From an uncultured Alphaproteobacteria bacterium (GTDB lineage: Bacteria; Pseudomonadota; Alphaproteobacteria; Rhizobiales; Xanthobacteraceae): DNA of 64,000 nucleotides. The stretch lies in NCBI GenBank assembly GCA_963841575.1, contig CAWJDC010000006.1:256835-320834 (forward strand), read 5' to 3'. Made by a program: the position numbers and the translations under genes. Below, in pieces: positions 1,104 to 61,022 of this stretch (position 1 is the first letter of the stretch; each line of letters opens with the position of its first letter). Below the pieces are notes generated by a model that was not told where the DNA came from, made no database searches, and saw only the letters and a program-made list of their open reading frames with translations.

Positions 1104-1303
1104 GCGTGGCGTGCGGCATCACACGCCTCGCCGCATTGACGCCTCATTAACCATTGCAAAAGCTTTCACGGGTGTTGCGCGGGGTCGAGGCTTCTTTGTA
1201 AGGCTGCATCAAGGTTGACGGAACCTTCGCTTAACGAAGGCGCTGCTAGACCCGGGCCAGACCAACCATGTCCGGTCGCGACGGAAGCAATGGAGGCACC
1301 GGA

Positions 1304-12739: not shown

Positions 12740-12753
12740 CACGGGCTTGCTTC

Positions 12754-13767
12754 ATGCGTCGTGCGATTCTTCTCGCTGGCATTCTGTCAGGCGCGGCGGC
12801 GCCGTTGCCGGCGCTCGCCAATGACACCACCGCGGAGCTTGCGAACGGCGGCCTGATCTTCGTCACCAACGATAACGTGGAGATGCGTTCGGAGAATTTG
12901 TTCATCTCCACCGGTCAGATCCGCGTGACCTATGACTTCTTCAACAAGTCGAACAAGGACGTCACGGTGCTGGTGGCCTTCCCGTTGCCGGAAATCCGTA
13001 TCTCCGGGGAGGACGACAATATCGCGGTGCCGACGCAGGACCCGGTCAACTTTGTCGGCTTCAAGACCACCGTCAACGGCAAGCCGGTCACGACGCAAGT
13101 CGAGCAGCGCGTGACGGCCGTGGGCATCGACCGGACGCAATACCTGCGCGCTCTCGGCATTCCGCTGGCTCCGCAACTGGCCGCGACCGATAAGGCACTC
13201 GATGCCCTGCCGAAGGACAAATGGGCCGAAGTGGTGGGGCTCGGCCTCGGCGCAATCACGGAGTACGACGCCGGTTCGGGGATGCAACAGCATCTCGAGG
13301 CGCGGTGGGGGCCTGCCACCACGTTTTATTGGCAGCAGACCTTTGCGGCCGGACAGGAGACGATCGTTCAGCACCAATACACGCCGAGCGTCGGCTCGTC
13401 CGCCCAGACCAATCTCGGCTCGCCCGATGAGACGACGCAGAGCTGGTACGGCGACTATTTGCAGAAATATTGCATCGACAAGAGCTTCCTGGCGACCATC
13501 CAAAGCTTGCGCAAAGCCAACAAAAGCGAATTCGGTCCGCCCTACACCGAACAGCGAATCGACTATATCCTCACGACCGGCGCCAACTGGTCCGGCCCGA
13601 TCCAGACTTTCAAGCTCGTCATCGACAAGGGCTCTGCCGACAATCTCATGAGCTTCTGTGGCACAGGCGTCAGCAAGACTTCCCCGACGCAGTTCCAGAT
13701 GCAGCAGAGCAATTTTACACCCGATAGCGATCTCTCTATTTTGATCCTGAGTAAGATCGGCAATTAG
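12754..13767 (+). CDS. DUF4424 domain-containing secreted protein
   Basis: Own ATG at 12754 and signal peptide MRRAILLAGILSGAAAPLPALA. Body includes NDTTAELANGGLIFVTNDNVEMRSENLFIS...VTYDFFNKSNKDVTVLVAFPLP. It is fused in the ORF track to the upstream gene only because that gene's frameshift removes its stop. Confidence 0.75.
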   Translation: MRRAILLAGILSGAAAPLPALANDTTAELANGGLIFVTNDNVEMRSENLFISTGQIRVTYDFFNKSNKDVTVLVAFPLPEIRISGEDDNIAVPTQDPVNFVGFKTTVNGKPVTTQVEQRVTAVGIDRTQYLRALGIPLAPQLAATDKALDALPKDKWAEVVGLGLGAITEYDAGSGMQQHLEARWGPATTFYWQQTFAAGQETIVQHQYTPSVGSSAQTNLGSPDETTQSWYGDYLQKYCIDKSFLATIQSLRKANKSEFGPPYTEQRIDYILTTGANWSGPIQTFKLVIDKGSADNLMSFCGTGVSKTSPTQFQMQQSNFTPDSDLSILILSKIGN

Positions 13768-17423: not shown

Positions 17424-18431
17424 TCAATCGATGGGAGGTTTGGTGCCCGTTTCGCGCGCGTGCATATCGAGCCACCGTCCCTCGACGTCGCGGCTCATGA
17501 TGTAAACCTTGCGGCTGGTAGCATCGCCGTACCGGAAGCAGAGCTCGTCGAGCGCAGGAATTCGCCGATAGTCGTCCTGATAGTGACGTTCGCGCGCGGC
17601 AAAAATCTCTTCGCAAGACGAATTTTCCAGGTCATCGATGTTGGTCTCGTCGACATCGAGCTTCAGCATCAACCTTCGCGGCTGGCTCGCGGTTTCCAGC
17701 ATCACGGGGATCCATTCCCGCTCCGACAGCCAGTTGTCGAATTTCCGCGGCCGAAGCTGTTTGATCCGTGGCGGCAGGCTATCGCGGATGTCTTCGGTGA
17801 TCCGTTCGCTCTCATATCGCGTGGCCAGCCCGGCATAAAAGAACGGGCTTGCGATGCGGCTGCTGACCTCTCCCGGAATATCGTCGAGGATGTCGAGCAG
17901 GCGGTCGAAAATCGGCAGTGTGTTTTGCGTGAGGAAGAGCTTTTCGCGGCGAACCATGCCGCGCTCGCCGCCCAACCGCAGGATCGCGGTCTGATAATCG
18001 AAGTCGCCGGCGCGCCCATTCCATCGATCGTGCGTTGCGCCGCAGCCCGCGAACGAGGCATGGAAGCCGGCGATGCCGGCGGCTTTTCGTTCCTCAAGCC
18101 ACGTTGTCAGCGCATCACCATGCCGAATGCGAAGGCCGCCGAGATTGAGTATCTCGAACTTGCCGCCGCGCCTGGCCCGGAGACGGGCAACGCCCTTCAG
18201 GGTCTCGAGATCGTAATCAAGCGATGGACCGACAAAAATCCCGATCTCGAGGTCATCGCGGCGGTCCGATTGCTTCCAATCGTGAAACCGATGAACAAGC
18301 CGTTCAAACCGCGAAAACGGCAACGCGCTGCGCTTTCGCGATTCCGAGATCAGGCAATAGCGGCAGATGTGCGCGCACGGCGCGTGGCGCAACGAAAACC
18401 GCAGTCCTTTACCCACAATCTCTCTTGGCAT
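17424..18431 (-). CDS. Radical SAM protein (no SPASM-type Cys cluster; C-terminal domain unrecognised)
   Basis: Intact 335 aa with the CX3CX2C motif CAHICRYC at residues 19-26. It starts 15 bp after the stop of the S8 peptidase gene on the same strand. Confidence 0.8.
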   Translation of the reverse strand: MPREIVGKGLRFSLRHAPCAHICRYCLISESRKRSALPFSRFERLVHRFHDWKQSDRRDDLEIGIFVGPSLDYDLETLKGVARLRARRGGKFEILNLGGLRIRHGDALTTWLEERKAAGIAGFHASFAGCGATHDRWNGRAGDFDYQTAILRLGGERGMVRREKLFLTQNTLPIFDRLLDILDDIPGEVSSRIASPFFYAGLATRYESERITEDIRDSLPPRIKQLRPRKFDNWLSEREWIPVMLETASQPRRLMLKLDVDETNIDDLENSSCEEIFAARERHYQDDYRRIPALDELCFRYGDATSRKVYIMSRDVEGRWLDMHARETGTKPPID

Positions 18432-18446
18432 GTCGAACTCGAGCGA

Positions 18447-20035
18447 TCACGGCTTCGCACGCGCGGCCTCGTCTTTCAAAACCGATTTGCCGTCGAGCCG
18501 CGTCACGGCACGATAGGCGTTCGCGAGACCAGCGCCAAAGGCCGAATCGTCGCCGGACGGCTTGAGCGGCTTGGCTGTCGTGGTGATGATGGTGCGGATA
18601 TCCTGTGGCTTGAGTGCCGGATAACGCTCCAGCAAGAGTGCCGCGATGCCGCTGACGTGCGCTGCGGCCACCGAGGTTCCCGTGGTGATCTGGTAGGAGT
18701 CATCGGGCGCCAGCGCGAGAATCTCGACCCCCGGGGCGGCCACCGCGATATAGCGGCCGCGATTGTCCATCTTGAACATGCCGTCGTTGCTGTCGGTCGC
18801 CGCCACCGCAATCACATCGGGATCGGCTGCCGGGTACGGCGGCTTGGAATTCGGCCCGGCATTGCCGGCTGCCGCGATCAGCACAATGTCTTTCTCGTAA
18901 GCTGCCGCCAGCATGCGATGGAGTGCTGGATCGGCGGGGCCGGTAAAGCTCATATTGACGACGCGCGCGCCATTGTCGGCGGCCCATTGCAGGCTCTTGT
19001 AGATCGCAAACGAGGTTCCGTTGGCTTCGCCGGGTGTGTCGTCGAACGCGCGCGCCGCCAGCACCTTGGCGTCCGGCGCGATACCCATGAGCTTGCCGTG
19101 TGCGGCAATCGCGCCCGCAATGGCGGTGCCATGCAGTTGCGGCTTGTCTTCGCCGCCGAGCGCATCGAAGTTTTTCACGATTGTCGCATCGAGATCGGGT
19201 TGGGTTGCATCGATGTCCGAATCGATCACCGCGACTGGAATATCCTTTCCCATCGCCAGGTGATGCGCTTCGGCGATGTGCAGTTTGCTCAGAACGTATT
19301 GGGCGGCATCGCCCGGCGTGCTCGCAGGGGTTTTGCTGAGTTGTTCCTGCAGCGCGAAAATATAATTGGGTTGCGCGCTGGCGACGATGCGTTCGTTCTC
19401 GAGCACGCCCACCACATCCGGCACCGATACGGCCGCGGCCGATGCGCCAGCGATAGAGCGTGCCGCCGAGCAACGGGAAGCTTTGGGTTTCGAGCTGCGT
19501 CAGATCGTATTGCCGCGCGATCCGATCGATCGCTTGCGGCGTGGCGTTTGCGGCGAATTCGGTGATGACCTCGTCGCGGACGTAGCGTTGCTCGCCGCGC
19601 GGCGGCACGCCGCTGCCGTTGTTGCCGCCGCTTCGGCGTCCCGCCTGGCGACGCGGTTGGCGCGACCGCCGCTTGGCAGCAGGGTATTTCGCCGACAGTA
19701 CGGTCGATCTCGCCGCGGCCGACGATCCGATGATGTCTACCGCCGCCGCCTTCGCCGGGTCCGGGCCCTCTGCCGATCCTGCCGGGGCCGCGCTCGACGA
19801 CAATGCCGACGCCGCGCCGCGGCGGCGGCGGCGGTTGTCGCCACCGCCGCACGCCCATGCCCGGTCTGCCAAAGCCGCCGCCCATCGCCGGCGGATGGAA
19901 GCCGCCCATCCGGCCGAAGCCAAACATGCCGAACGCTACCGCCGCGCGCGAACCGCCAATCGAGCCCGCGGTCACGAGCAAACCGCAGAGCAGCAACGCC
20001 AGGATCAGCCGCGAAGTCATGAAGCTCTTTCGCAT
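18447..20035 (-). pseudogene. Secreted S8 (subtilisin-like) serine peptidase with a Gly-rich N-region and I9-like propeptide; about 2 frameshifts in the N-terminal third
   Basis: RBS gggag and signal peptide MRKSFMTSRLILALLLCGLLVTAG. Gly-rich tract FGMFGFGRMGGFHPPAMGGGFGRPGMG. Propeptide YVRDEVITEFAANATPQAIDRIARQYDLTQLE. Catalytic motifs VAVIDSDID, HGTAIAGAIAA and GTSVAAAHVSG. Confidence 0.85.
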
Positions 20036-31876: not shown

Positions 31877-33024
31877 TCATCGGTCCCAGGCGATGGCGAC
31901 AATCACCGCCATGATCGCCAGCATGGCAACGATCATGGCGACGCAACCATTCCAGCCGGCGAAGGTCCAGGCAAGGCCGTTGAGAAAAGCGCCCGCGCTG
32001 CCGCCGATATAGAAGATCGACGCGTAAAGACCGACGGCGGACGAGCGTCCCTCCTTGGCGGTCAACGTGACATAGCCGGTCGAAACCGCCTGGCACAGCA
32101 TGCCGCAAACCGCGCACAGCGTCAGCCCGGTGAGGATGATGCTGACCGGGGACGCCAGCAGCAGCAATGCGCCAACGACCCACACCGCGATGAGGCCGAG
32201 CACGAAACGCCGGCGGCCGAAGATCGTAATCGCGCGTCCGGTCCAAGGCACCACCACGCTGCCGACCAGATAGGTGAAAAACAGCCCGCCGAGCAGCGTC
32301 GGCGAAAACAGATAGGGCGGCGCCGCGAGATGGAAGCTTATGTAGGTGAAGGTGCCGATGAAGCTGAACAGGACGCCGAAGCCGATGGCGTAAGTTGCCA
32401 GCAGGCGCGGATTGCGCAAGTGGCGGACCATTTGCACGACGGAATTCGCCAATCCGCCCGAGCGCACGAAACGCCGCTCAGGGGCCAGCGTGAACGCGAC
32501 GATGGTCGCGGCGCCAAGCGTGATCAGCGCGACGACGATGAAGGCGGCGCGCCATCCGATCATATCGGCAAAACGCCGGGGATGAACCGGCCGCAAAAGC
32601 CGCCGATGCTCGAGCCCGACACATAAAGCCCGGCGACGCGCGGAATATCAGCCGGCGGCCATTCGTCGCCGATATAGGCGACGGTGACGGTGAAGATCGG
32701 CGGCAGCAGCAAGCCCTGAATGAAGCGCCAGAACGCCAGCTGCGGGACGCTTCCCGAGAGCGTCATGATCAGGGTCGGCAACACGATAGCGAACATCGCG
32801 GCGGTGATCAGGCGCTTGCGTCCGGCGACATCGGCCAGCACGCCGGAAAATGGCGCCGTCAGCGCAATGGCCGCCGTGCCGGCGGTCATCAGCGAGCAGA
32901 TCTCGCCGGCGCTGACGCCGAATTCGTGCGCCAGTTCGGGCAGCAGGGCCTGCGGCGAATAAAGATTGACGAAGGCGCAGAAGCCCGCCGTGGCCACGGC
33001 AAGGCTGCGAGGATCGAAAGTCAT
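31877..33024 (-). pseudogene. MFS transporter (12-TMS type), one frameshift near 32580
   Basis: MTFDPRSLAVATAGFCAFVNLYSPQALLPELAHEFGVS...SGVLADVAGRKRL joins IGWRAAFIVVALITLGAAT.... Hydrophobic throughout. Confidence 0.8.
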
Positions 33025-33637: not shown

Positions 33638-35419
33638 TCATTTGCCGAACGGCTTGATGCTTTCGGCGACGAAGTCGGCGATATGCTCCTTGGTGATGAC
33701 GCCGACGATCTGCGACGGGCGCCGGCGTCCTTCGGCTGTCGTCACCACCGCCATGCCGGCGTCATGGCGCGTCATGCGCTGGACCAGATCGAACACGATG
33801 TCGCTCTTCGCGCGCGAGCGTGAAATTGCGCTGTGCGACGTCGCCGAGGGTGACGCCTGTATAGGCGGCCTCAAGCCCGCGCCGCAGTCCGGTGTTGACG
33901 CGCACGCACGCCGGCGATGTGGTTGCCGCGGTCACCACGACGTGCTTCATGCCGCCGGCGGCGCCGTGTTGGCGCAGGAACGCGTCGAAATCGGCGTCCG
34001 CCGGCACCACCGCGACGTCGCGTTCCATGACTTCGCCGGCGCGGCGCACCAGGAACATGTTGGCGTGCAGCGCCTTCGGCACAATGTGGCCGCGGCCGAC
34101 CAGCTTGACGGTGTAGATATTCTCCAGCGACAGCAGCCGCCGCATGCCGATGGCAAGCGCGACGGCGACGATGATCGGCATCACCAGATCGTAGTCGCGC
34201 GTCATCTCGAAGATCATGGTCACGGCCGTCATGGCGGCGCCGGTGCCGCCGCCGACCATGGCGGCCATGCCGACCATCGCGCAGGTCGTGACGCTGACGC
34301 CCGTCGACCGGATGGATGGCGGTGACCAAAGCGCCGAAAGCGCCGCCGATGGTCGCACCCATGAACAGCGACGGCGAGAAAATGCCGCCCGAGGCGCCGG
34401 AGCCGAGGCTCACCGAGGTGGCGACAAGTCTTGGCGAAGAACAGCAACAACAAGCAGCGCCGGAACAGCAAGATCGCCCGAGAGGATCGCTTGGATGGTC
34501 GAGTAGCCGACGCCTTCGACGTAGTAATGGCCGGCCGTGCGCAACAGCACATACATCAGGACGCCGAACATCAGCATGCCGATGGCGTGGCGGAGATAGG
34601 CGGTTCTCGATGCTCTCGAAAATGTCCTCGGCGAAACTGAGCCCGCGGATGAAGGCGGTCGCGGCAAGGCCGATCAGCGCGCCGAGCAGCGCATAACAGC
34701 AGCAGCGCCGACAGCGAGGCCGGTTGCTCGACGCTGAGCAGCTCGCTCGGGATCGCGAAGGCCGGGTGGATGCCAAAGAAGATGCGGCCGATGAATGTCG
34801 CGGTGCCGGTCGCCAGCGCGACCGGCAGGAACGTGCGGGCGCTCAATTCCGGCAGCATCAGTTCGATGGCGAACATCACGCCGCCGATCGGTGTGTTGAA
34901 GGTCGCGGCGATGCCGGCGCCAGCGCCGGCCGCAACCAGCGTGATGCGTTGCCACGGCGCCATCGGGATGATCTGGCCGAGCGAGGAGCCGATCGCGGCG
35001 CCGATCTGGATGATCGGGCCTTCACGGCCGACCGCGGCGCCGGTGCCGATCGACAGGGCGGATGCGAGCGACTTGATCACCGCGACAACCGGCCGGATGA
35101 TGCCTTCCTTGTAGTAGATGGCGTCCATCACTTCCGGCACGCCGTGGCCGCGCGCTTCCGGTGCGAAATTCTGACCAGGAAGGTGACGATCATGCCCCCG
35201 ACGATGGGAACGAGGATGATAAACGACGCCCCAAGGGCTTGGCGGCGTGAACACGTTGGCATCGTAGTCGGTCGAAAACGTGCCGAGAAAGGCGACGTTG
35301 TGGATGAACCCGATCAGGGCGCGGAAGAGAACGGCGCCGATTCCGGCAACGAGGCCCACCAATACGGCAAGGAGCGATAACCGGGTCAGCCCGATCCGCT
35401 GGGTCAGCTTGAGTTTCAT
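33638..35419 (-). pseudogene. ClC-family voltage-gated chloride channel with C-terminal CBS domains, at least 5 frameshifts
   Basis: GHGVPEVMDAIY; selectivity motifs GTGAAVGREGP and GIAATFNTPIGGVMFAIE; GASGGIFSPSLFMG; CBS tail ...AGMAVVTTAEGRRRPSQIVGVITKEHIADF. Confidence 0.85.
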
Positions 35420-49228: not shown

Positions 49229-50185
49229 ATGAAAAAGCTGGCTTATTCGTTGGTTCTGTTGCGGCCGGATTGGCGTCGTCCTCCGTTTTCGCCGCCGACA
49301 TGGCGGTCAAAGACTCCGGCGGCGGCCCCGGCTCCAGCAACACCGTGTGGGACGTCGTGATCACCGCCGCGTTGATGACGGACTACAATTTCCGCGGCGT
49401 CACCCAGTCGAATCACGGCCGTCGACCCAGGCCGGCTTCGAGCCGCGCTACAACTTCAACGCGAACCTGCCAGGGCTATGGCGGCGTCTCGGGTGAGAGC
49501 ATCGACTTCCCGAATCGCGCTGCAGCCGAAGTCGATCTCTACGGCGGCATCCGTCCGACCTTCGACAAGCTCGCCCTCGATTTCGGCTTCTGGTACTACT
49601 CCTACCCAGGCGGCCAATGCTACAATTCGGCGATCGCCGGTTGTTCTGGCTAGCCTGCCGAACGGCAATGTCATCAAAAAGGATTGAGCTTCTACGAGTT
49701 TACGGCAAGGCCACCTATACGGTGAACGACAACTTCAATTTCGGCGGCAGCGAGTGGTACTCGCCCTCTGTGCTCAACACCGGCGCTGATGGACTCTACT
49801 ACGCCGGCAACGTGACCTTCACCGCTCCGACCACTTGGTTCACCAACGGCGTTGGCGCCTATGTGTCCGGTGATCTCGGCTACTGGAATCTCGGCACCAG
49901 CGACTCGTTCTACGGCCGGTTCGCAGGCTTCCCGAACGGCATTCCCTACAAGAGCTATGCCAACTGGGACGCTGGCTCGGCTTCACCTCAAGGTGTTTAC
50001 GCTTGATCTGCGCTACTACGACACCGACCTGGGCCAGGGCGATTGCAACGCCTTCACCAGCGCTCAGACCGCCAGCGGCGTGGCCAGCACGCCGATCAAC
50101 CCGGGCGGCCCCGGCATCCAACTGGTGCGGCCCGGCTTACATCGCCAAGCTGTCGATCGCGACATCGGTCAACGCGCTGAAATAA
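49229..50185 (+). pseudogene. Outer-membrane beta-barrel porin (Bradyrhizobiaceae porin family), about 4 frameshifts
   Basis: MKK..FVGSVAAGLASSSVFAADMAVK; TDYNFRGVTQSNHG; EVDLYGGIRPTFDKLALDFGFWYYSYPG; FYEFYGKATYTVNDNFNFGGSEWYSPSVLNTGADGLYYAGN; TLDLRYYDTDL; AYIAKLSIATSVNALK*. Confidence 0.75.
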
Positions 50186-50209
50186 CCGGCCGGATATGTC
50201 TTCACAATG

Positions 50210-50247
50210 GCGGGCGGTCGCGGAAACGCTGCCGCCCGCTTCATTTT
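50210..50247 (+). terminator. Intrinsic terminator after the porin gene
   Basis: gcgggcgg-tcgcggaaacgctg-ccgcccgc followed by ttcatttt. Confidence 0.55.
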
Positions 50248-50292
50248 GAGGCCGTGCAAGATCGTCAGGTACCGGCTTTCGCACCGGCCTCG

Positions 50293-52057
50293 TCACTCTG
50301 CCGCCGGAGCCAGCGGCACGTCGCGCACCTGATAGAGCGACCGATCTCGGACCATCGACGCGGCGGCGATGGAAGGCGCCGAGCGTCGAGCGATGGCCGA
50401 TCGAGATGATCGTCGTGCCCTTGAGCCGATCCTGCAGGAGCCGGTAGAGCATCGCCTCGGCCGGCTCGTCGAGCGACGCGGTCGCTTCGTCGAGGAACAG
50501 ATAATCGGGCGCTTGAAGCAGCGCGCGCGCGATCGCGAGCCGCTGCTGCTCGCCGAGCGACAGCATGCGGTTCCAGTGCGCCTCCTCGTGGAGCCGCGTC
50601 ACCATGCCAGGCAGGCCGACCGCGGTAAGCGCGTCGGCCAGACGGGCGTCGTCGAAAGTGCCGATCTTGCCCGGATAGGTGATGGCGGCGGCCAGCGTCG
50701 CCACCGGGAAATACGGCCGCTGCGGCACCAGCATGACCTTGGCGTCCGGTCGGCACGCGTCACTTCGCCGGACCCGAACGGCCAGATGCCGGTGATGGCG
50801 CGGAACAGCGTCGATTTGCCGGCTCCCGACGGGCCGGTGACCAGAACACGCTCGCCGGCGCTGAACGCCAAGTGCTCGGCATTGACCAGCGGTTCGCCGT
50901 CGGGCAGGCGGACGTGAAGATGATCGATCGCGAGTGCCGTGGCGCCGTCGCGCGGCGCGACCTCGATCGCCGGCTGGATCGAGCGCTGCGGCGCGGCCGG
51001 CCGCGATCGCCTGCTCGAAGCCGGACAAGCGCGTCACCACCGCCTGATATTGCGCGATCGACTGGTAGGCGGTGACGAAATAGGACAGCGCGGTCTGCAC
51101 GCTGTTGAAGGCGGACGCCGGTCTGCATCAGGCCGCCGAGCTGCATGGCGCCGGCGAAATAAGCCGGGCTGACCATCAGATAGGGAAAAATCACCGAGGC
51201 CTGCGAATAGCTCTGGGTGAAGAACGTCAGCTTCTTCTGCCGCTGCATGATGGCGATCCAGTTGTCGACAAGCAGGCTGAAGCGGTCGAGATGCCGCTCG
51301 CGTTCGGCGGCTTCGCCGTGCAGCGCGGCGATCTGCTCGGAATTTTCGCGCGTGCGCACGAGATTGAAGCGGAAATCGGCTTCGAAACGCTGCTGCTGGA
51401 AATTGAGCGGGATCAGCGGCCAGCCGATCAGGTGCGTGAGCGAGGTGCCGATCGCGGCATAGATCAGCGCCGCCCAGACCAGATAGCCCGGGATGTTGAA
51501 GTCCGCCGAACAGATGCAGCGGCGCGTGCTCCGACAGGCTCCAGAGGATGACGACGAACGAGCACAGCGTCACGACCGCATTGAGCAGGCCGATGCCGAT
51601 CGAGAGCGTACTCTGGACGAACATCTGCAGGTCTTCGGCGATACGCTGATCCGGGTTGTCGGCGGCGTCGCCGAGAAGCTGCATGCGGTAGTGGTTGGCG
51701 GTATTGAGCCACTGCCGCAGATAGGTCTGCGTCATCCAGCGCCGCCAGCGGATCTGCAGCCAAAGATTGAGATAGTTCTGATAGACCGCGAGCACCGTAT
51801 AGATCGCAGCGAGCACGCAGAAGAACAGGATAGCGCTGACGAAGGCCGTCCAGTTGTGGTCCTGCAGCGTATTGTAAAAGCGATTGTACCATTGGTTGAG
51901 GATCACCTGGATGCGCGACGATCGACAGCTCGATCGCGATCACGGCGGCGAGCAGGATGCGTCCTGGCCAGCGATCCTCCGAGCGATAATAGGGAATGGA
52001 CAGCCGCCAGATGGTGGCCAGCGTTGAAGCAAGGCGTTTCACGAAAGACCTCCACAA
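50293..52057 (-). pseudogene. SbmA/BacA-family ABC transporter (fused permease + ATPase; BclA/YddA-like), at least 6 frameshifts
   Basis: TM domain: LNQWYNRFYNTLQDHNWTAFVSAILFFCVLAAIYTVLAVYQNYLNLWLQIRWRRWMT...DNPDQRIAEDL. ATPase: Walker A LVTGPSGAGKSTLFRAI, signature LSLGEQQRLAIARALL, Walker B YLFLDEATASLD. The start codon is uncertain (TTG at 52057 or GTG at 52042). The stop was reconstructed at 50293-50295. Confidence 0.8.
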
Positions 52058-52464
52058 TAGGGGGCGGAAAAGGGGGAATGGACGCGTAGCAATGACCCAG
52101 GACGCAGTAAGCCGGACCGCGAAGCGTCGCGTCGTAGTGCGTCACGATCAAGTAGCGGCCATCGGATCGCTGATGATCGACCTTTGGCATATTGCGAGGT
52201 TTTCATGGTGCACCGCAGTATCACAGCGTCCTCGGTTCGGGCAGTGCCTTGTGCGACACCCTGCCACGCTCGCGCAACGGCAGCTTGTCGCGGAACTCGC
52301 TTAATTTGCCTGGGGGTGACAACGAATCTTGCTTTCTTCATGTCGGGCGAAGGAGCATTCTCGCTTGTCGCGCATTCGGCGATCGAACTGCGAGACAACA
52401 AAAATTGAGTAAGGGTCCTCACAACAAAAGTTGAATGCAGGGCCCTCGTCGGGGAGGACTATCC

Positions 52465-54102
52465 ATGTTCACGCAAATTCTCGATCCCACAGGAAACCTG
52501 TTTCTGACTTGGTTGGTTGCACTGATTCCGGTCGTGCTCCTGCTGTTTCTTGCTTGCCGGCCTGCGCATGTCGGCGTGGGCGGCGGTGCTAATCGGCTCG
52601 ATCGTCACCTTCCTGCTTGGCTTGTGGGTCTGGAAGATGCCGCTCGACGACGGGATACGTGCCTACATTTACGGCTCCGCCACGGGTGTATGGAACGTCG
52701 ACTGGATCACGTTTTGGGGAGTGATGCTCTTCAACACCCTGGTGACGACAGGCTCGTTCGACAAATTGCGCCGCTGGCTGGTGCAGCAGGGCACCCGGGA
52801 CGTGCGGGTGCAGACCATTCTGTTCGCTTGGGCCTTCGGGGCCTTGCTCGAAGGGCTGGTCGGCTTCGGCTACCCTTGGGCCTTCGTCGCGCCCATCCTG
52901 ATCGCGATCGGCATTCCCGATCTTGACGCCATTCGCGTCGCCGCCATCGCCAATAATGCGCCGGTTTCCTACGGTGCCTTGGGGCGCCGATCATCGCGCT
53001 CGCGACGGTCACCGCCGGCACGCTGGGCATGAGTTTCCAGGACCTGCTGCCGATCTATTCGGCGTCGGTCGGCAAAATCGTCGCCATCCTGGCGCTGCTG
53101 CCGCCCTGGATCCTGCTCTACCTCGTCTCGGGCCGCCAAGGCATGTGGTCGGCGTGGCCGCTCGCCATCGTCGGCTCGCTCGGCTACATCGCCGGGCAGT
53201 TGCCGACCGCGATCTATCTCGGGCCCTATCTGCCGGACGTGATCGGCTCGATCATTTGCTTTGCGGTCCTGCTGCTCCTGCTCAAGGTCTGGCGGCCGGC
53301 GCAAGTGCTGGCCTATGGCGGCGCACCGGCGACGGGCGACATGCAGGCGGAGGCGCATGGGCTCTCCGCCGGCGACATCGGCATGGCGTGGCTGCCGATT
53401 GCTGTTCTGATCGCGGTGGTCGTTGCTTGGACCGGACCGTGGTCGCACTTGCCCGGGGTCGTCGTGCTGCACTACGCCGTTGTCGCCCATTCGGCGATCA
53501 CGCCGGGTGCAACGATCTCGGCGATCTTCAACTGGACGCCGTTCGTCGGCGGCACGGCGATTCTCGCGTCCTGGATCATCGTGGTGCTGCTGCTGCGCGT
53601 CAGCATGAGCCAGATCAGCGCGATCTTCGCCAAAACCTGGTCGCAGATGTGGGGCGCCTGCCTCGTCGGCGTTTTCATCTTCGGCCTCGCCTACGTGTTC
53701 AACTACTCGGGCATGGCCGGCTCGCTCGCCAGCGCCTTTTCCAAGCTAGGGCCGGCCTTCATCATCGTGGCGCCGATCCTGGGTTTCATCGGCGTTGCTT
53801 TGTCGGGCAGCAATACTTCGACCAACGCGATGTTCGGCGCGTTCCAGGCGCTGGTCGGCAAGGTGCTCGGCTTCCCCTTGATCTTGCTGCCGGCGCTCAA
53901 CTCGGTCGGCGCCGAGATCGGCAAACCGATTGCACCGCAAACCGCAAGTGTCGGCGTGTCGACCAGCAAGTTCGTCCGCAACGAAGGCGAGGTTATCCGC
54001 CACAATTTCGGCTGGTGCCTCGTGCTGCTGGCTTACCTCGTGATCATCGGGGTGGCCTGCTATCTGTTCTTCCCGCAAATTGCGGTCCTGCCGACACACT
54101 AA
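52465..54102 (+). pseudogene. L-lactate/glycolate permease (LctP family), 2 frameshifts
   Basis: RBS ggggagga. MFTQILDPTGNLFLTWLVALIPVV...; GVWNVDWITFWGVMLFN; FGALLEGLVGFGYPWAFVAPILIAIG; ...GVALSGSNTSTNAMFGAFQ. Confidence 0.85.
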
Positions 54103-54295
54103 ACCGCACTATGCCCAAAGCGTTGCCTGGGGCCGCCATTTGGCGGCCCCATTTTTATTGGCTTGCGGAGCGGAACACTGGATACGGGAAATATACTTGA
54201 CGCGGGCCGCGTCGCTGCGGCCTAGATCGTCGCGCGCAGCGATCCGGCCGCGCATTTTTGCGCGCCGCGAATTTGCGCGCACGGAACTGGAGACG

Positions 54296-54712
54296 ATGAT
54301 GGTGTGTCTGCGCTGGTGTGCCGCGTGCTGGCTCGTTGGTTTCGTGGTGTCGCGTGCGATCCTGCCCGTTGCCGCAAGCGAGAGCACATTTCCGTTCGAC
54401 CAGGAACTGATGCTCGATGTTGCACCCATGCATGGCTCCAAGCGCATCCCGATGCTGGAGATCGACGAGAATGGCGCCGCCACGATCGATCTGTGGTGCA
54501 CGAGCGTACGTGCCGCTGCCACCGTCGGCGACGGCACCATCAGCATCGCCGCCGACTCGCCCCAGCCGGCGCAGTGCACGCCGGATCGCCAAAGCGGCGA
54601 CGACAGCTTGCTGGCGGCGCTCGCCCAGGTTACCGGCTGGCGTCGCAACGGCGACCTCGTCGAGCTCATCGGCGCCACCACGCCGCTGCGTTTCCGCCTG
54701 ATGACGAATTAA
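54296..54712 (+). CDS. Hypothetical secreted protein (138 aa)
   Basis: RBS ggaga and hydrophobic N-terminus MMVCLRWCAACWLVGFVVSRAILPVAA. Two further Cys residues (LWCTS, AQCTP). The tail LAALAQVTGWRRNGDLVELIGATTPLRFR is faintly META/HslJ-like. No firm family. Confidence 0.45.
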   Translation: MMVCLRWCAACWLVGFVVSRAILPVAASESTFPFDQELMLDVAPMHGSKRIPMLEIDENGAATIDLWCTSVRAAATVGDGTISIAADSPQPAQCTPDRQSGDDSLLAALAQVTGWRRNGDLVELIGATTPLRFRLMTN

Positions 54713-54772: not shown

Positions 54773-57463
54773 CTACCGGTTAGCAAGTGCCGCCAGAACG
54801 GCCTTCGCCGCATCGGCCCGGTCGACCGTCGCAGGCGCTGCCGCCGGCATTCCTCGTGCTGACGGCGTGTTGAAGGCCTTGGCCAGCGCCTCGTCCATCA
54901 CCGCCCTGGTGAGCGTCGCGTCGGGCGCGAACGTGGTCGCGGTTGCGCCGGCCATGTAGCCCTTGGCGACGATGGCTGCGATCGCCTTTGCGCGCGGATC
55001 GGTCGCCGGCACGTCGGTGAACGCGCTGGCGCTTGCGTCCTCCGATAGCTTCGCTGCGCGTGCGAGCATGACGGCGAAGTCGGCCCGCGCGATCGGGGCC
55101 GCCGGTGAGAAGGTGCCGGCGGCTGCGCCGGGCTGCGGATCGGGAAGGATATGCGCGCGGGCAAGCACCCCGATCGCATCATGGCCCTGCAGCGTTTTCG
55201 GCACGTCGGTGAAACGATCGATGCCGTGTTCCTTTTGCTGCAACTCGGCCACGATCATCGGCCGCAAATTGACCTTGGCCGAGCCCGGACCGGGCGCTGC
55301 GCTGTCCTGATACATGAAGCCGCCAAACTTGCGGTCCAGGAATACGCTCACACTCGGCTGCTGGATCAATGGTCCGTGAAACTTGGTGTCCTTGCCGAAG
55401 CTGTTGTCGGAATCGTTGAGCATGACGGTCGCAGTGGTCGTTTTGGCGCTGGAGACCGCGGAAGAATCTCCATAGAGAAACTTCGTCGTGTTCGACCCCG
55501 TCTGCTTGGTGGAATCATCGGAGTTGAGTGCGTCGCCAAGGAACGCCGCCAGACTGCCGCCAAAACTGGTGTTTGTTTCCTCGACCGAGGTCACGGTCGC
55601 GTCGTATTCGGTTGTCGCGGCCGTGTCCTTCTCGTTGGTGGTGGTATTGGTCACACTGTCGGTCTTCTCGACCGGCGCGTTGCCGGCTCGCGCCCCGTAG
55701 GACGTGCTTTCGAGCTTGATCACGCGGGCGGAGTTGAGCTCTGCGCCTTGCCCGTGGCCGAAAAAAGGATCGAGCTTGAGCAGGTTCGCGGCCTCCTGCT
55801 TGGTCAAGACCACCTGCTTCGTGCTGCCCTTGTAGACGATCTTGTTGCCATTCTTGTCGACGAGCGTGTCGTCGGAATAGTCCAGCGCACACTGATTGAT
55901 GCCCGGGATCGCCTCGACGTCGCCGGTGCACGCCGCTAAATCCAGCACCGCGATCGTGCCTACCACCGGAACAGCGGCGGTCATCACCGTGAGCTGCTTG
56001 TCCGCAAGTTGCTCCCAGGTCGCAAACTCCGGATGAATGAGCAGGACGAACACGTCGTGCCAGAATGGCTCCGCCGCGTAGGCGTCGGAGCTTGGAATGG
56101 GCTTTGCGCAATCGGTCTCGCTCGCGCAGGTCTCGCCCGATCCGGGAACCAGCGTATCGATGGCTTCGGCGGTCCAGGTCGAAGAAAACGAGTTGAGGAC
56201 CGTGTTCGTCGTTTTGTCGGTACTGGTTGTTCCGAAACCGTATTCGGTCGAGTTGTCCCACCCCTGCGAATTCGAAAACGACAGGCCGACCGAAAGTCCG
56301 TTGCCGCTATACGCCAGGTTGGCGCTCGCCTTGATCTGGTCGTCGTCTTCGGTGGTCGATTTCTGCGAACTGTCCGACTCGGTGTTGAGTGCGTAGCTCG
56401 TCGTGTATTGCCTGGTCATCTGGACCGTGGCCGAACTCTCGTCGCCCGGCGGCTGGTACATGATGGTGTAGGGCAGCACCTTGAACTGCGCCATTGCGGC
56501 GGGCGAACGCACGACCGTCAGCTCCTGAGTCGATATGGCCTGCCGGTTGAGCGCGCCGATGTTGCCATTGCCCGCAGAGTCGCTTTGGCTTTCGTAAACG
56601 GTGAGAACGAACTGCAGTTTTCGCACCAAATGCTTCTCGTCGAAGATCTTCTCGTCCGTTGTCACCGTGAGCATGCCGTTCGTCATTTCGGTGCCGGCGG
56701 GGGCGGCGAGAATCTCGTCTTTTGTGGCGCTGACCTGCTTCCAGGCGCCAATGTTGCCGTCCCAATCCTTGCACTGCTGGTCCTTGGCGGGCGTCGTGCC
56801 TGATTGCGGATCGCACATCGACAGCGTCGCATAAAACCAGCCGCGGTCGCCGTAGACCGGAGCCGACGGGTTATTGCTGGCAAGCTGACCGCTCTGCTGG
56901 AATTGTGTGAGGATGTAGAAAGTCGGCGCATCGTCATTCGTAGTCACGATTTCAAGATTGCCGGATCCGACCGCCGGCGAGGAAATTCCCGGAGCGGAGC
57001 CGCCGGACGTTTCGGCCGGCGGCGGCAAGGTCCATCCCCGGGTCGCCCACGCCGTGTCCACCGCAAAGGTGCCGACCGGTGGATACGGCAGCGGGCCGAC
57101 CACGCCCATCAGCCCGACCGGAAAAGACACTGGTTTCGGGGCGTGCGCCGTCGTTCCGTCCTTGAAGCGCAGCAGCACCGGCAGCGACATGCAGCAGCCG
57201 GGCTTCGCGTTCGGCATATTGGCCACGACCTGGGTGCTGGAGTTCGATTGCATCGGCATCTCGATTCCGCCGACGACCACCGATTTCACGTTGTCGAGAT
57301 CGCTGCCGCTGATGACGATCGGCGTGCCCGGGACCGAAACTTCCGGCTCGACCTTGTCGATTTTAGGCGCCGCGTCGGCGCGCGATGTTAGTAACGGGGA
57401 CATCGGCAGAAGGACCGCAGGCATGAACGTAAGCTTCAGCCAAAGCAATTTGCCGAATTTCAT
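54773..57463 (-). CDS. Large secreted protein: N-terminal IPT/TIG domain, ~600-aa Ser/Thr/Asn/Asp-rich uncharacterised core, two C-terminal SLH (S-layer homology) repeats
   Basis: Intact. RBS ggagg lies 5 nt before the ATG at 57463. Signal peptide MKFGKLLWLKLTFMPAVLLPMSPLLTSRADA. IPT/TIG: PKIDKVEPEVSVPGTPIVISGSDLDNVKSVVVGGIEMP...STQVVANMP. SLH1: FTDVPKTLQGHDAIGVLARAHIL...GTFSPAAPIARADFAVMLARA. SLH2: FTDVPATDPRAKAIAAIVAKGYMAGATATTFAPDATLTRAVMDEALAKA. Confidence 0.8.
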   Translation of the reverse strand: MKFGKLLWLKLTFMPAVLLPMSPLLTSRADAAPKIDKVEPEVSVPGTPIVISGSDLDNVKSVVVGGIEMPMQSNSSTQVVANMPNAKPGCCMSLPVLLRFKDGTTAHAPKPVSFPVGLMGVVGPLPYPPVGTFAVDTAWATRGWTLPPPAETSGGSAPGISSPAVGSGNLEIVTTNDDAPTFYILTQFQQSGQLASNNPSAPVYGDRGWFYATLSMCDPQSGTTPAKDQQCKDWDGNIGAWKQVSATKDEILAAPAGTEMTNGMLTVTTDEKIFDEKHLVRKLQFVLTVYESQSDSAGNGNIGALNRQAISTQELTVVRSPAAMAQFKVLPYTIMYQPPGDESSATVQMTRQYTTSYALNTESDSSQKSTTEDDDQIKASANLAYSGNGLSVGLSFSNSQGWDNSTEYGFGTTSTDKTTNTVLNSFSSTWTAEAIDTLVPGSGETCASETDCAKPIPSSDAYAAEPFWHDVFVLLIHPEFATWEQLADKQLTVMTAAVPVVGTIAVLDLAACTGDVEAIPGINQCALDYSDDTLVDKNGNKIVYKGSTKQVVLTKQEAANLLKLDPFFGHGQGAELNSARVIKLESTSYGARAGNAPVEKTDSVTNTTTNEKDTAATTEYDATVTSVEETNTSFGGSLAAFLGDALNSDDSTKQTGSNTTKFLYGDSSAVSSAKTTTATVMLNDSDNSFGKDTKFHGPLIQQPSVSVFLDRKFGGFMYQDSAAPGPGSAKVNLRPMIVAELQQKEHGIDRFTDVPKTLQGHDAIGVLARAHILPDPQPGAAAGTFSPAAPIARADFAVMLARAAKLSEDASASAFTDVPATDPRAKAIAAIVAKGYMAGATATTFAPDATLTRAVMDEALAKAFNTPSARGMPAAAPATVDRADAAKAVLAALANR

Positions 57464-57819
57464 GATCGCCTCCATGCGTTAGGACCGATGCAAGTTCGTT
57501 TGACTCCCAAATGAAGTTCCGCTAAGCTCGGTAGCATGCCGCGGTGCCGCACCCGGCAACCAGCACCAATTCTGGTTCCCGGGATCTCACTGGACGCGAT
57601 CAATGTCGCGACCAATTGGTGTCCGATGATATTTTAATTTGTATCTTTTCTGCGTAGTCGGCGGCTGTCGGTCCTTCGTTCAAATATTTTTTTTGTCATG
57701 TGCTCTACGTCACACGGCGATGCTTGCCGCAGCGATTACGCTCATGACAATTGAAGGTTCACGCCGCAAGCAGCGTAGCGTAATGAAAATCGCTGTTGAA
57801 CCGTGACAGGGAAGTCGAG

Positions 57820-58011
57820 ATGCTTTTCTATGAGAAAATCAGGCCGCTAGAAATCTTTCCCAAGAATGGCACAGTCACCGATCCGCAGCTTCCTCCAGCT
57901 ACGTCGGAGGGCGGTGGCTGTTCGTCGGCATGCTACTGTGGGGAGCCCTGCACCAAAGTTCCGCAGCACCATGGAAATCATTATTGCCCAAAACACGGAA
58001 GTTATTCATAG
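57820..58011 (+). CDS. Small Cys/His-rich hypothetical protein (63 aa)
   Basis: ATG at 57820 with gggaag 7 nt upstream. Sequence: MLFYEKIRPLEIFPKNGTVTDPQLPPATSEGGGCSSACYCGEPCTKVPQHHGNHYCPKHGSYS. It lies in a visibly AT-richer island directly upstream of DUF1326/DUF2182. Its coding status is unproven. Confidence 0.35.
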   Translation: MLFYEKIRPLEIFPKNGTVTDPQLPPATSEGGGCSSACYCGEPCTKVPQHHGNHYCPKHGSYS

Positions 58012-58121
58012 GATGTCTTGCTTAAATTGAAATGCGGGCGTGGTAGCCCGGGACCTCGCTTGTCCGCGTCGACGTCGGCGCGTATCGTGCCCCGTGATCT
58101 GCGGCAACAGCCGCAACGCCC

Positions 58122-58802
58122 GTGCCATCGATGTCGACACCTCCTGACGTTCCCGATTGGCGCATCACCGGCGACTGGTGGGATTTGTGCAACTGCGCGG
58201 TCGGTTGCCCTTGCAATTTCGGCTCCAATCCAACGCTGGGTTATTGCGAAGGCGTGCTGACGTGGTTGATCCGCGACGGTCACTACGGCGACCTCAAGAT
58301 CAGCAAGGACCTTGCGGTTGTCCTCATCATTCATTGGGAGGGCAACGTCATGGAGAAGAACCGCGAATTCGGCTTTTTGATCGACGAGCGCGCCAATGCC
58401 GACGAACGCGTTGCGCTCGAGACGATTTTCACCGGCTATGCCGGCGGCGCTTTTGCGGCGTGGCGCGACTTGACCATCAGTCTCGACGGCGTCGCGTTCG
58501 TGCCGATGACGGTCACGCACGATGCCGAGACTTGGCGCGTCGAAGTGCCCGGCATGGTCGACGGGCTTGGCGGCCCGTTTCGCAAATACATGGTGCCGGC
58601 GGGCGACACTTGCCGCATCTATAACGCGCCGCGCCCCGAAGTGACGCCCGGCTTTCTCACGGTTGGCGAGGCCAAGCGCAATATCGTCACCGGCGCGTTC
58701 GGCCGCAATTGGGATTGGTCGCAGCGATCCTCCAAGCACATCGCGTTCGACTTGCGCGGGCCGAAGACGTTCAGCTGGCGCCAGCCTTTGCCGACCGAAT
58801 GA
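58122..58802 (+). CDS. DUF1326 domain-containing protein
   Basis: Intact. Hallmark motif WWDLCNCAVGCPCNFG. Start is GTG at 58122 or ATG at 58131. Its stop overlaps the next gene's ATG (ATGA). Confidence 0.8.
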   Translation: MPSMSTPPDVPDWRITGDWWDLCNCAVGCPCNFGSNPTLGYCEGVLTWLIRDGHYGDLKISKDLAVVLIIHWEGNVMEKNREFGFLIDERANADERVALETIFTGYAGGAFAAWRDLTISLDGVAFVPMTVTHDAETWRVEVPGMVDGLGGPFRKYMVPAGDTCRIYNAPRPEVTPGFLTVGEAKRNIVTGAFGRNWDWSQRSSKHIAFDLRGPKTFSWRQPLPTE

Positions 58803-59605
58803 CGCCTCCTCACGAAACCGCCGCGGCGCAACGCCTTGATCGCTTCATTGTGGCCGGTCTGCTGCTCTTGGTCGCCGCGCTGGCCTGGGCCTTTACCGTG
58901 CATCAGGCGATGCTGATGAACGGCATGGGCGCACTCCAGCTCGGCATGACCATGCCGATGGAGGCTGCAGCGCCGTCCTGGAGCGCAAGCGACGCGGCGC
59001 TGGTCTTCGCAATGTGGTCGGCGATGATGGCGGCTATGATGGTACCGGGCGCGAGCCCGATCGTTGCTGCCTTTGCGGCGATCAATCGCCGGCGCCGCCA
59101 GCGCGCCGCGCCGCATGTGCCGACCGCGATCTTTCTATTCGGCTATCTGATCGCCTGGGCAGGCTTTTCGTTCTTGGCCACGGCGGCGCAGTGGGGGCTG
59201 CAGGCCACCGGCCTGATCACGGCGATGATGCAGTCGGCATCGTATGGCTGGTCGGCCGCGCTGTTCATCGTCGCCGGGCTCTATCAGTTCAGCCCCTTGA
59301 AAGACAGATGTCTCGCCTATTGCCGCTCGCCCGACGGTTTCATTCTGAGCGAATGGCGCGACGGTGCGCTTGGTGCCGCGATCATGGGGTTGCGCCACGG
59401 TCTATTTTGCATCGGCTGTTGCGCGGCCCTGATGGTGCTGCTGTTCGCCGTTGCGGTCATGGATTTGCGCTGGGTCGCGGCTCTGACGGTTCTGGTGACC
59501 GCCGAGAAGATTCTTCCAGGAGCAAAATTCTGGCGGTTCGGGATCGGTGCCGGGTTGTTGGTCGCCGGCGTCGGCTTCTCGCTGGCGGCATGGAGCGCGG
59601 CGTGA
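58799..59605 (+). CDS. DUF2182 domain-containing integral membrane protein (predicted metal-binding)
   Basis: Intact multi-TM protein with Met-rich segments AMWSAMMAAMMVPGASP. Also YQFSPLKDRCLAYCRSP and LFCIGCCAALMVLLF. The ATG at 58799 overlaps the DUF1326 stop. Confidence 0.8.
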   Translation: MTPPHETAAAQRLDRFIVAGLLLLVAALAWAFTVHQAMLMNGMGALQLGMTMPMEAAAPSWSASDAALVFAMWSAMMAAMMVPGASPIVAAFAAINRRRRQRAAPHVPTAIFLFGYLIAWAGFSFLATAAQWGLQATGLITAMMQSASYGWSAALFIVAGLYQFSPLKDRCLAYCRSPDGFILSEWRDGALGAAIMGLRHGLFCIGCCAALMVLLFAVAVMDLRWVAALTVLVTAEKILPGAKFWRFGIGAGLLVAGVGFSLAAWSAA

Positions 59606-59644: not shown

Positions 59645-61022
59645 TTAAGCCGCCAACGCTGTGTCGACCTGCGCCAAGGCTTGCCGCAAGGCGCTAAAGC
59701 AGCGGCGATCAATTGCGGTATCGAGCATTTCCGTCATGACGGCAAAGGCCTTGGTGACCGGCATCGCTGCCCGGTAAGGCCGCTCGGCGGTCAGCGCGTC
59801 GAAAATATCGGCGGTGGTGATGATGCGGCTTTCGAGCGTGATCTCGTCGCCCTTCAGCCCGCGCGGATAGCCCTTGCCGTCGAGCCGCTCGTGATGCGCC
59901 GCCGCGACGGCCGCCAACTCGCTGAACGCTCTGATGCGCGACAAGATCGTCTCGGTGTAGGCAGGATGAAGTTTCATCGCCACCCATTCGGCCTCATCAA
60001 GCTTGCCGGGCTTATCGAGAATTGTGTTGCTGACGCCGAGCTTGCCGATGTCGTGCAGCAACGCCGCGCGCTTAAGCCAGCGGCGCCGCTCCGCCGAAAA
60101 TTCCATCTGTTTGGCGATCAAATCCGTGAACAGCGTGACGCGGTCGCTGTGTCCGCTGGTATATGGACTCTTGGAATCGACGACTTGGGCGAAGGCGGCG
60201 GCGATGTCGTCAAGATAGTCTTCATCGACCAGCGAGCTGCTTTGCGCAGGCTCGAGCGCGAAGATCGCCTCTTGCAGATCATCCGACCGCAGCGTGTCCC
60301 AAAATCCTGGCTGTGCCGCGACGCGCGCGAACGCTGCTGCCAATTGCGGATCAAACCAAGTGCCGGTGCGGTGCTCGACCTCGCGCTTGGCGGCGTCGAC
60401 GCCGTTGGCGGTCTGAAACACGTCGGCGATCTGCGCCAACAGCGCAACGCGCGAATAGATCGGAATGGCCTCGCCGCTGAGTCCTTCCGGCATGCCGCCG
60501 CCGTCCCAGTGTTCGTCAAGGTGCCGGATGCTTTGCGCGACTGCCTCCGAGAAACGCATCTTCCGCGCGATCTCCGCGCCGCGGTCGCAGCGCGTCTCCA
60601 TCAATTCCTGGGCGATCTGGCCGCCGTTCTGGAAGATGTGCACGAGCGCGCGAAACCGCTCGGCGAAGTCCTGCCTTCATTCCGGTGTGCGACAGGACGA
60701 AGCGCAGCACCTGCGGCAGGCTGCCGTTCACCGTCATGAAGTCGTGCTTGAAGGCGATGTCGTCGGCCAAGTAGAGTTGGCAGATGCGCGCCGCATTGCT
60801 GCTGCAGCCGAGGTCTTTCAGCAGCAAGGTGTAATAGAGTTCCCACACCTGGGCGTCGTCGAGGCCGGCTTCTTTGCCGATGTGAATGCCGATCCAGCAG
60901 GCGCGAACGCAATGACCGGCCGGCTGGCCTTCCACCATATCGAGCGCATGACTGAGCGCGCCCAGTATCTCGGCCAGGCGGATTTTCGGTGCCTCGCCAG
61001 ATCGGCTCTGTGAGTTGGTCAC
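59645..61022 (-). pseudogene. HD-GYP domain phosphodiesterase with a degenerate N-terminal HD-like domain, one frameshift near 60620
   Basis: C-terminal domain: LLHDIGKLGV...HHERLDGKGYPRGL...TTADIFDALTAERPYR. The N-terminal domain has LLKDLGC in place of HD. GTG start. Confidence 0.85.

Follow-up and report, generated by a model that had tools for sequence, protein, structure and literature searches.

How does a protein that ends in surface-layer homology (SLH) repeats come to be encoded by an alphaproteobacterium, and what does it carry on that anchor? The question is raised by a 64,000-nucleotide stretch of contig CAWJDC010000006.1 (positions 256,835 to 320,834 of the forward strand; the whole stretch analyzed here is called the window) from an uncultured soil member of the Xanthobacteraceae, which holds a complete gene for an 896-amino-acid (aa) protein. 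Judged from sequence, the product appears to be a modular cell-envelope protein from a family without a database name, with a signal peptide, two immunoglobulin (Ig)-like domains, an unannotated head and a C-terminal SLH anchor. Our best guess, held with about even confidence, is that the head is a non-enzymatic, adhesin-like binding module on a wall-tethered envelope protein.

A preliminary description of the gene had claimed a double SLH module at its C-terminus, and comparisons of sequence and structure agree. Pfam SLH (PF00395) matches residues 815-854 with 43.3 bits against a cut-off of 20.8; the first repeat (about residues 751-800) carries an insertion, and Pfam alone makes no call there. 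Residues 749-875 align by sequence to the SLH domain of Bacillus anthracis Sap (6bt4, E 0.002), and the family profile matches Sap over all three repeats at E 2.3e-10. The C-terminus of the AlphaFold model (predicted local distance difference test, pLDDT, 50-84) matches 3pyw in Foldseek with a probability of 1.00 and a template modeling (TM) score of 0.54 relative to the target, over 178 columns. From the Sap sequence alignment, the family profile and the structural match, we assign two full SLH repeats and a truncated third (TVDRADAAKAVLAAL), in tandem as in the three-pronged modules of Sap and Paenibacillus alvei SpaA. Read by eye, the TRAE-like motifs are IARAD, LTRAV and VDRAD, with Arg in all three and Glu replaced by Asp or Val; the Arg of repeat 2 is not conserved among relatives. 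The protein resembles the SLH proteins of Bacillota (B. anthracis Sap, EA1 and BSL; P. alvei SpaA) in its Sap-like SLH sequence and structure, in the Arg at each TRAE-like position and in the combination of a functional domain with an SLH anchor. However, its SLH region is C-terminal, with a truncated third repeat and an insertion in the first, its functional domain is unrelated to the known ones, and its host is a diderm alphaproteobacterium with a Tol-Pal system.

Tol-Pal is the outer-membrane tether typical of Gracilicutes, and genes for TolB and an OmpA-domain, Pal-like protein are present in the window, together with one for an FtsH that shares a 90% cluster with FtsH from metagenome-assembled genomes (MAGs) of Xanthobacteraceae/Hyphomicrobiales. 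The SLH/CsaB system has been reported to be practically absent from bacteria that use Tol-Pal. CsaB-like pyruvyltransferases have been placed mainly in Firmicutes and Cyanobacteria (PMC6801904). An SLH region in a Tol-Pal diderm alphaproteobacterium is an unusual combination, and the preliminary description had already called SLH modules atypical of alphaproteobacteria. The OmpM/Slp tethers of diderm Terrabacteria (bioRxiv 10.1101/2021.05.31.446380; PMC10628300) are likewise SLH proteins of diderms and are expected to bind the wall from the periplasmic side. OmpM has N-terminal SLH, a coiled coil and a C-terminal beta-barrel, whereas the window protein has C-terminal SLH and is otherwise predicted to be globular with helices, and its host already has TolB and a Pal-like protein. 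An SLH-porin tether of the OmpM type was rejected, given the C-terminal SLH and no porin match in Pfam or Foldseek.

The anchor is nevertheless conserved in several Tol-Pal diderms, namely this alphaproteobacterium, Rhodanobacter and Acidobacteriaceae. Between two Rhodanobacter-type copies (L001 and L002, 94% protein identity), the ratio of nonsynonymous to synonymous substitution rates (dN/dS) is 0.158 over the whole gene; the head alone gives 0.117 and the SLH region 0.235. The SLH end is therefore maintained by selection in this gammaproteobacterial lineage, documenting SLH-type wall anchoring under purifying selection in Tol-Pal bacteria. If the anchor works in such bacteria, some Gracilicutes must display an SLH ligand on their wall. 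A polymer of this kind, if real, would run contrary to the view that SLH/CsaB is essentially confined to Terrabacteria.

Attached to the anchor is a region that defines an unnamed extracytoplasmic domain family. In the window protein, residues ~110-745 match nothing in Pfam, NCBIfam, PADLOC or PHROGs (the PHROGs match covers the SLH region only), and the head core is without a Pfam match in 62 family members, the window protein and 61 others. We searched 1.84 billion cluster representatives (50% identity) exhaustively by hmmsearch with a core-only profile (A2). The family comprises 316 clusters at E<=1e-3, of which 223 reach E<=1e-10 and 109 reach E<=1e-30, and spans at least four phyla: Proteobacteria, Acidobacteriota, Myxococcota and Bacillota. 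The mapped matches delimit a conserved module of ~420 residues (~310-730) between flanks that vary on both the N- and the C-terminal side. From 5.8 billion proteins, a word-index search returned seven relatives only, all metagenomic and either without a name or called 'hypothetical protein' or 'S-layer homology domain'; with a diverse core alignment, it returned only eight proteins, 'hypothetical protein' or unnamed. When 185,579 species genomes were scanned, 13 loci came up, and the relationships of the gene do not track taxonomy. The best match is the gammaproteobacterium Rhodanobacter sp. C01 (41% identity), apparently an isolate by its GenBank record, which carries no MAG flag, with a full-length homolog of 913 aa that has TIG, core and SLH parts. 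Several MAGs of Acidobacteriaceae and of Polyangia/Kofleriaceae follow at 34-35% identity to the window protein, then the alphaproteobacterial copies (Caulobacteraceae and Rhizomicrobium MAGs) at 27-28% and two Bacillota MAGs at 24-26%. The family is not a common Bradyrhizobiaceae family of known function.

Mapping the domains that accompany the head, we found that both the flanking modules and the anchor vary. Of 48 diverse members, 19 contain SLH and 9 contain TIG, and Kelch, CBM5/12 and Big_1 are found in one each. Five long members have the head followed by Big_1, three to eight TIG domains and sometimes He_PIG, and end in either three CWB2 repeats (P0134, P0144) or three SLH repeats (P0141). 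Acidobacterial copies have TIG, head and SLH, or head and three SLH repeats, and copies from Caulobacterales and myxobacteria consist of the head alone. Such layouts are characteristic of surface proteins held on the wall by non-covalent anchors that can be exchanged for one another. The Cwp family of Clostridioides difficile offers a parallel, since P0134 and P0144 carry its CWB2 triplet in place of SLH, and interchangeable anchors with variable heads are common to both; however, the window protein has SLH, and no known Cwp functional domain matches the head. The long members, with head, Big_1, He_PIG and up to eight TIG domains, likewise recall Ig-repeat adhesins (the Big_1 arrays of invasin/intimin, and SiiE), and the Foldseek matches of one AlphaFold model (model 1) touch the Ig arrays of SiiE and plexin. 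In contrast to these adhesins, the window protein is limited to a single TIG and one other Ig-like domain, both N-terminal of the head, and no secretion or outer-membrane anchoring system is linked to its gene. Across 15 loci, no neighboring gene is common to more than three and there is no conserved operon; the gene therefore stands alone.

In the two Bacillota MAGs (L013, 7880-10213; L014, 13282-15348), the SLH region lies in an open reading frame (ORF) directly downstream of the family gene, through either a split of the gene by assembly error or an anchor made as a separate protein. A 70%-identical metagenomic relative (L016, 2279-4837) is split into a 605-aa ORF and a 187-aa SLH ORF, probably by a frameshift in that contig.

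The head also lacks a structural neighbor. AlphaFold with an 8-sequence alignment left the core at pLDDT 20-30, but with a 100-sequence alignment (A5) residues 172-745 were modeled at a mean pLDDT of 79.2 and a predicted TM score (pTM) of 0.81, as an Ig-like beta-sandwich (172-~335) followed by a beta-rich head with five short helices; residues 353-422 and 609-673 are the low-confidence segments left in this model. Foldseek with the model found none of 350,542 PDB chains at E<=1e-3, its top PDB matches being Ig-like domains with query-normalized TM <=0.14, and none in BFVD at the same threshold; a head-alone profile returned nothing from PDB sequences. The earlier statement that the core is unassignable thus extends from Pfam, NCBIfam, PADLOC and PHROGs to PDB sequences and to the Foldseek pdb and BFVD sets. 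Because a confident predicted structure finds no neighbor in PDB or BFVD, we regard the head as a candidate new fold whose structure clearly deserves to be solved.

N-terminal of the head, the protein follows familiar lines. The claimed secretion fits a Sec-type signal peptide recognized by eye, and the claimed IPT/TIG fold is borne out by a Pfam match (PF01833, residues 33-97, 26.3 bits against a cut-off of 20.9) and by Foldseek, in which the model of this domain matched the IPT-containing proteins CGTase (domain D), plexin (IPT) and SGBP-B. The second Ig-like domain, common to about half of the head family, gives only weak Ig-like matches in Foldseek (CsuC chaperone, integrin legs). Signal peptide, Ig-like modules, variable head, wall-binding triad and exchangeable anchors together are those of a wall-anchored modular surface protein.

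Within the head, the recurrent motifs are LPYTIxYxPPGxxS, WDxST, PGSGxTC, EPFWxDxFVLLxHPxFAxW, LxAC, LDPFxxxGQ, DSTAxS, LNDxDN and YLDRxFGxFMxQD. Seven residues are essentially invariant across ~150 sequences: P331, G340, S343, D470, C512, D565 and D710. C512 is kept in 148/149 sequences, Q572 in 146/151, D684 in 140/146 and R580 in 129/149, but H477 in only 125/150. The eight Cys in four pairs and the stretches rich in Ser, Thr, Asn and Asp that were quoted earlier are all present. C525, the presumed partner of C512, is Cys in only about half of the members, yet each of the 52 sequences that lack Cys in 513-552 has a Cys in the alignment column of position 558, and the Cys count is even in 109 of 129 cores. 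By this census, C512 is part of a universal structural disulfide whose partner is C525 in one subfamily and the Cys at 558 in the other. The window protein is a member of the C525 subfamily, in which the pair C446-C452 is found as well. A catalytic or thioester role of the invariant Cys was ruled out on these grounds, as was a Cys-His-Asp triad, with H477 poorly kept and C512 disulfide-bonded. A thioester-domain (TED) adhesin was rejected as well: C512 is not free, although Q572 is conserved, and there is no TED match in Pfam or Foldseek.

The remaining invariants (Pro, Gly, aromatics and carboxylates) fit a stable, possibly Ca2+-binding domain, but the carboxylates could also belong to an acid-based active site. 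Thus the head might instead be a wall-anchored enzyme, a glycan hydrolase or lyase or one that modifies wall polymers. SLH and CWB2 anchors commonly carry enzymes, such as BslO of B. anthracis and the Cwp enzymes of C. difficile; the near-invariant D470, D565, D684, D710, Q572 and S343, together with R580, could furnish the active site, one member has a CBM5/12 module, and in the window protein the head adjoins the wall anchor. However, no enzyme family shows similarity in Pfam, NCBIfam, PDB sequences or Foldseek, none of the His, Glu or Lys of the head is invariant, its Cys are not free, and the long Ig-like stalks of the Bacillota members suggest projection away from the wall. We consider an enzyme fairly unlikely, if worth keeping in mind.

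The preliminary description had seen in the core a resemblance to the amphipathic Ser/Thr-rich hairpins of aerolysin/ETX-MTX2 beta-pore formers, a resemblance that did not survive closer comparison. Profile A5 gave sub-threshold matches in PDB sequences to parasporin-2 (2ztb, E 0.42) and epsilon-toxin (3zjx, E 10), but with independent alignments of the same region (A6) and of the whole head (A7) these disappeared, and an antibody heavy chain and IL-4 came up at comparable E-values. We therefore attribute the toxin matches to Ser/Thr-rich composition. Pfam on the 62 members and Foldseek on the model gave no aerolysin, ETX_MTX2, MACPF, leukocidin or PA match, and no toxin is among the top 50 Foldseek PDB matches of the pTM 0.81 model. 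Ser/Thr-rich composition and short amphipathic hairpin-like stretches are indeed shared with that superfamily, but the head, at ~420 aa, is larger, contains helices and three disulfides, is fused to wall anchors, and has no hidden Markov model, profile or fold similarity to it. Homology to aerolysin/ETX-MTX2 proteins was accordingly rejected.

A new kind of beta-pore-forming or membrane-inserting module, in which one or both Ser/Thr-rich hairpins would refold into a transmembrane beta-barrel after oligomerization, is a separate matter. The two low-confidence segments contain 31-37% Ser plus Thr, and in both of them, as in FSLSLSFEAGFSVGQ and IKASANLAYSGNGLSVGLSFSNS, hydrophobic and polar residues alternate above shuffled sequences (median z 1.24 in segment 1 and 1.3 in segment 2, against 0.03 in a well-folded control segment; z>2 in 25-31% of members); the weak parasporin-2 and epsilon-toxin matches of one profile point the same way. 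Yet those matches are not reproducible and no toxin family appears in Pfam or Foldseek, the alternating arms are only ~7-8 residues long, against ~10 or more in each arm of an aerolysin-type insertion hairpin, in segments whose length ranges over 59-114 residues across the family, and a module covalently fused to wall anchors in many members is a poor fit to a released pore former. Segment 1 shows 0 nonsynonymous against 11 synonymous changes between L001 and L002, so that it is not a free linker; we list this conservation here, though it does not itself speak against a pore. All told, a pore-forming head is quite unlikely.

Of the surface-layer, adhesin or toxin-like roles first suggested for the protein, we favor the adhesin-like one; the toxin resemblance lacks a reproducible match. 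As an adhesin-like binding protein, it would be exported through Sec by its signal peptide, and the IPT/TIG domain and second Ig-like beta-sandwich may act as spacers or presentation modules. The ~420-residue head, predicted to be beta-rich and disulfide-braced with many conserved Asp, would bind its target, possibly in a Ca2+-dependent manner, and the two flexible hairpin segments would be exposed loops rather than membrane-insertion hairpins. The SLH triad, two full repeats and a shortened third, would keep the protein in place by non-covalent binding to a cell-wall glycopolymer or to peptidoglycan. In this diderm host, the expected place of the SLH end is at the wall, within the periplasm, and surface exposure of the head is not implied. 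The head-stalk-anchor layouts of the family and the purifying selection on the head support a binding head, and the set of near-universal polar residues (S343, D470, D565, Q572, D684 and D710), the less conserved H477 and the constant pairing of C512 count against an enzyme.

Several observations weigh against a binding module of this kind. A soluble SLH-tethered protein in a diderm would be periplasmic, a poor fit to an adhesin, and the head of the window protein lies right against its anchor, with the Ig-like domains distal instead of forming a stalk between the two. Several invariant Asp, along with Gln, Arg and Ser, could just as well be active-site residues, and the chitin-binding nature of the CBM5/12 module in one member points in the same direction. 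Moreover, PS_pyruv_trans (PF04230, csaB) was not matched among the ~30 window ORFs scanned. Two bolder readings, that the head is a new fold, either a new class of membrane-inserting/pore-forming module or a new adhesin head, and that some Gracilicutes possess a wall polymer recognized by SLH, pyruvylated or otherwise, we hold to be unlikely.

The gene itself is intact and without a frameshift, as first described, since its ORF can be aligned over the full length to those of relatives with 891-896 aa (P0002-P0004). It lies in a single minus-strand ORF (54773..57475), whose first ATG would give 900 aa; we prefer the ATG at 57463, the start given in the preliminary description, because it follows a GGAGG at a distance of 5 nt and yields the 896 aa of the database copy (P0001). 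The ~650-bp region upstream (57476-58121) may be a long structured leader: the fold of its last 297 nt is more stable than that of shuffled sequences (z -2.8), and it contains no Rfam family, riboswitch or known RNA and no sigma-70-like consensus. Some S-layer genes have long 5' leaders, and the leader, the SLH anchor and the Ser/Thr-rich composition could be those of an S-layer subunit in which the head serves self-assembly into a surface lattice. However, S-layer proteins do not usually have eight Cys and multiple disulfides, the family is rare and its distribution patchy, codon usage is average instead of that of a highly expressed gene, the wall of a Tol-Pal diderm lies beneath the outer membrane, and the many architectures with Ig-like stalks are unlike lattice proteins. 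We regard a lattice subunit as very unlikely. Table 1 gives the positions of the features.

Table 1. Positions in the window of the 896-aa gene, its upstream elements, its encoded domains and the Tol-Pal genes
Feature	Position	Strand	Details and basis
Complete gene	54773..57463	-	896 codons + stop (54773-54775); ORF list, full-length alignment to P0002-P0004
Shine-Dalgarno GGAGG	57469..57473	-	5 nt upstream of ATG 57463; read directly from sequence
Upstream intergenic region/leader, ~650 bp	57476..58121	-	GC ~0.52-0.55, A-rich tracts
Signal peptide, residues 1-31 (MKFGK...SRADA/AP)	57371..57463	-	By eye: basic N-region, hydrophobic core, AxA-like site
IPT/TIG Ig-like domain, residues 33-110	57134..57367	-	Pfam PF01833; AlphaFold pLDDT 74-88
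Pro-rich low-confidence linker, residues 111-171	56951..57133	-	pLDDT ~30 in model 1
Second beta-sandwich (Ig-like) domain, residues 172-317, C223/C240 pair	56513..56950	-	Model 2, pLDDT mostly 83-95
Conserved head domain without annotation, residues 318-736	55256..56512	-	hmmsearch family, AlphaFold model, conservation table
Ser/Thr/Gly-rich variable-length segment 1, residues 353-422	56198..56407	-	pLDDT 31-53; alternating hairpin IKASANLAYS-GNG-LSVGLSFSNS
Ser/Thr/Gly-rich variable segment 2, residues 609-673	55445..55639	-	pLDDT 48-69; family comparison
SLH anchor region, residues 745-896	54776..55231	-	Pfam SLH, Sap 6bt4/3pyw sequence alignment, Foldseek 3pyw
TolB (TolB_N + PD40)	56-1150	+	Pfam domains
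OmpA-domain, Pal-like protein	1362-~1900	+	Follows TolB

How the gene reached this genome is a further question. The preliminary description had proposed horizontal acquisition, noting a core less GC-rich than the genome and an adjoining AT-rich island. Both compositional observations hold, with a GC content of 0.600 in the core against 0.645 in the window and 0.52 in the upstream stretch 57500-57999, but as a sign of foreign DNA they fail. At third codon positions, the GC content of the gene (GC3, 0.797) is inside the range of its neighbors (0.63-0.87), and its codon-usage distance to the pooled neighbors (0.058) is among the lowest of 16 genes. The core deficit sits in the first and second codon positions (GC1 0.528, GC2 0.470), and the low core GC is therefore a matter of amino-acid composition, rich in Ser, Thr, Asn, Asp and Lys. 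A recent foreign origin inferred from low GC was thus ruled out by typical GC3 and codon usage.

On a deeper timescale, horizontal spread is plausible. No mobile-element context was found: there are no tRNAs and no meaningful flanking repeats, and the scanned ORFs include neither an integrase nor a transposase. In the three closest relatives whose contigs could be retrieved (56-70% identity), the flanks have no similarity to the window, and synteny is lacking. The pointers to horizontal transfer are two, the patchy distribution, with a best genome match in a gammaproteobacterium, and this lack of synteny, which together suggest transfer. The simplest reading, and a plausible one, is that the gene spread horizontally long ago and has since ameliorated.

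Several genes elsewhere in the window look broken. An L-lactate permease gene (52435-54102, +) is in three frame segments with shifts near 52545 and 52990, and Pfam Lactate_perm matches both pieces (52550-53032 and 53029-54102); it is either a pseudogene or carries indel errors. An SbmA/BacA-like ABC transporter (50096-51906, -) is split into membrane and ATPase ORFs, an MFS fragment (31877-32596, -) covers profile positions 29-170 of 347, and a CLC channel fragment (34571-35419, -) covers positions 10-162 of 346. In GC3-based gene calling, many ORFs of the window are only 110-200 aa long. These observations suggest widespread frameshifts in the window, while the 896-aa gene is intact.

Immediately around that gene, a small exported protein is encoded convergently (54080-54712, +), 60 bp beyond the stop of the 896-aa gene, with a borderline META-domain match (23.9 bits, cut-off 24). 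Upstream, a DUF1326 gene overlaps one for PpoB2/DUF2182 ('copper chaperone'), the pair occupying 58122-59605 (+); next comes a gene for an HD-GYP-type (HD_5) protein (59645-60643, -). Farther away, a subtilase (Peptidase_S8; 18447-19424, -) adjoins a 335-aa ORF without a Pfam match (17424-18431), and an 804-aa ORF (11353-13767, +) encodes a large peptidoglycan-related protein with PG_binding_1, a YkuD L,D-transpeptidase domain and DUF4424.

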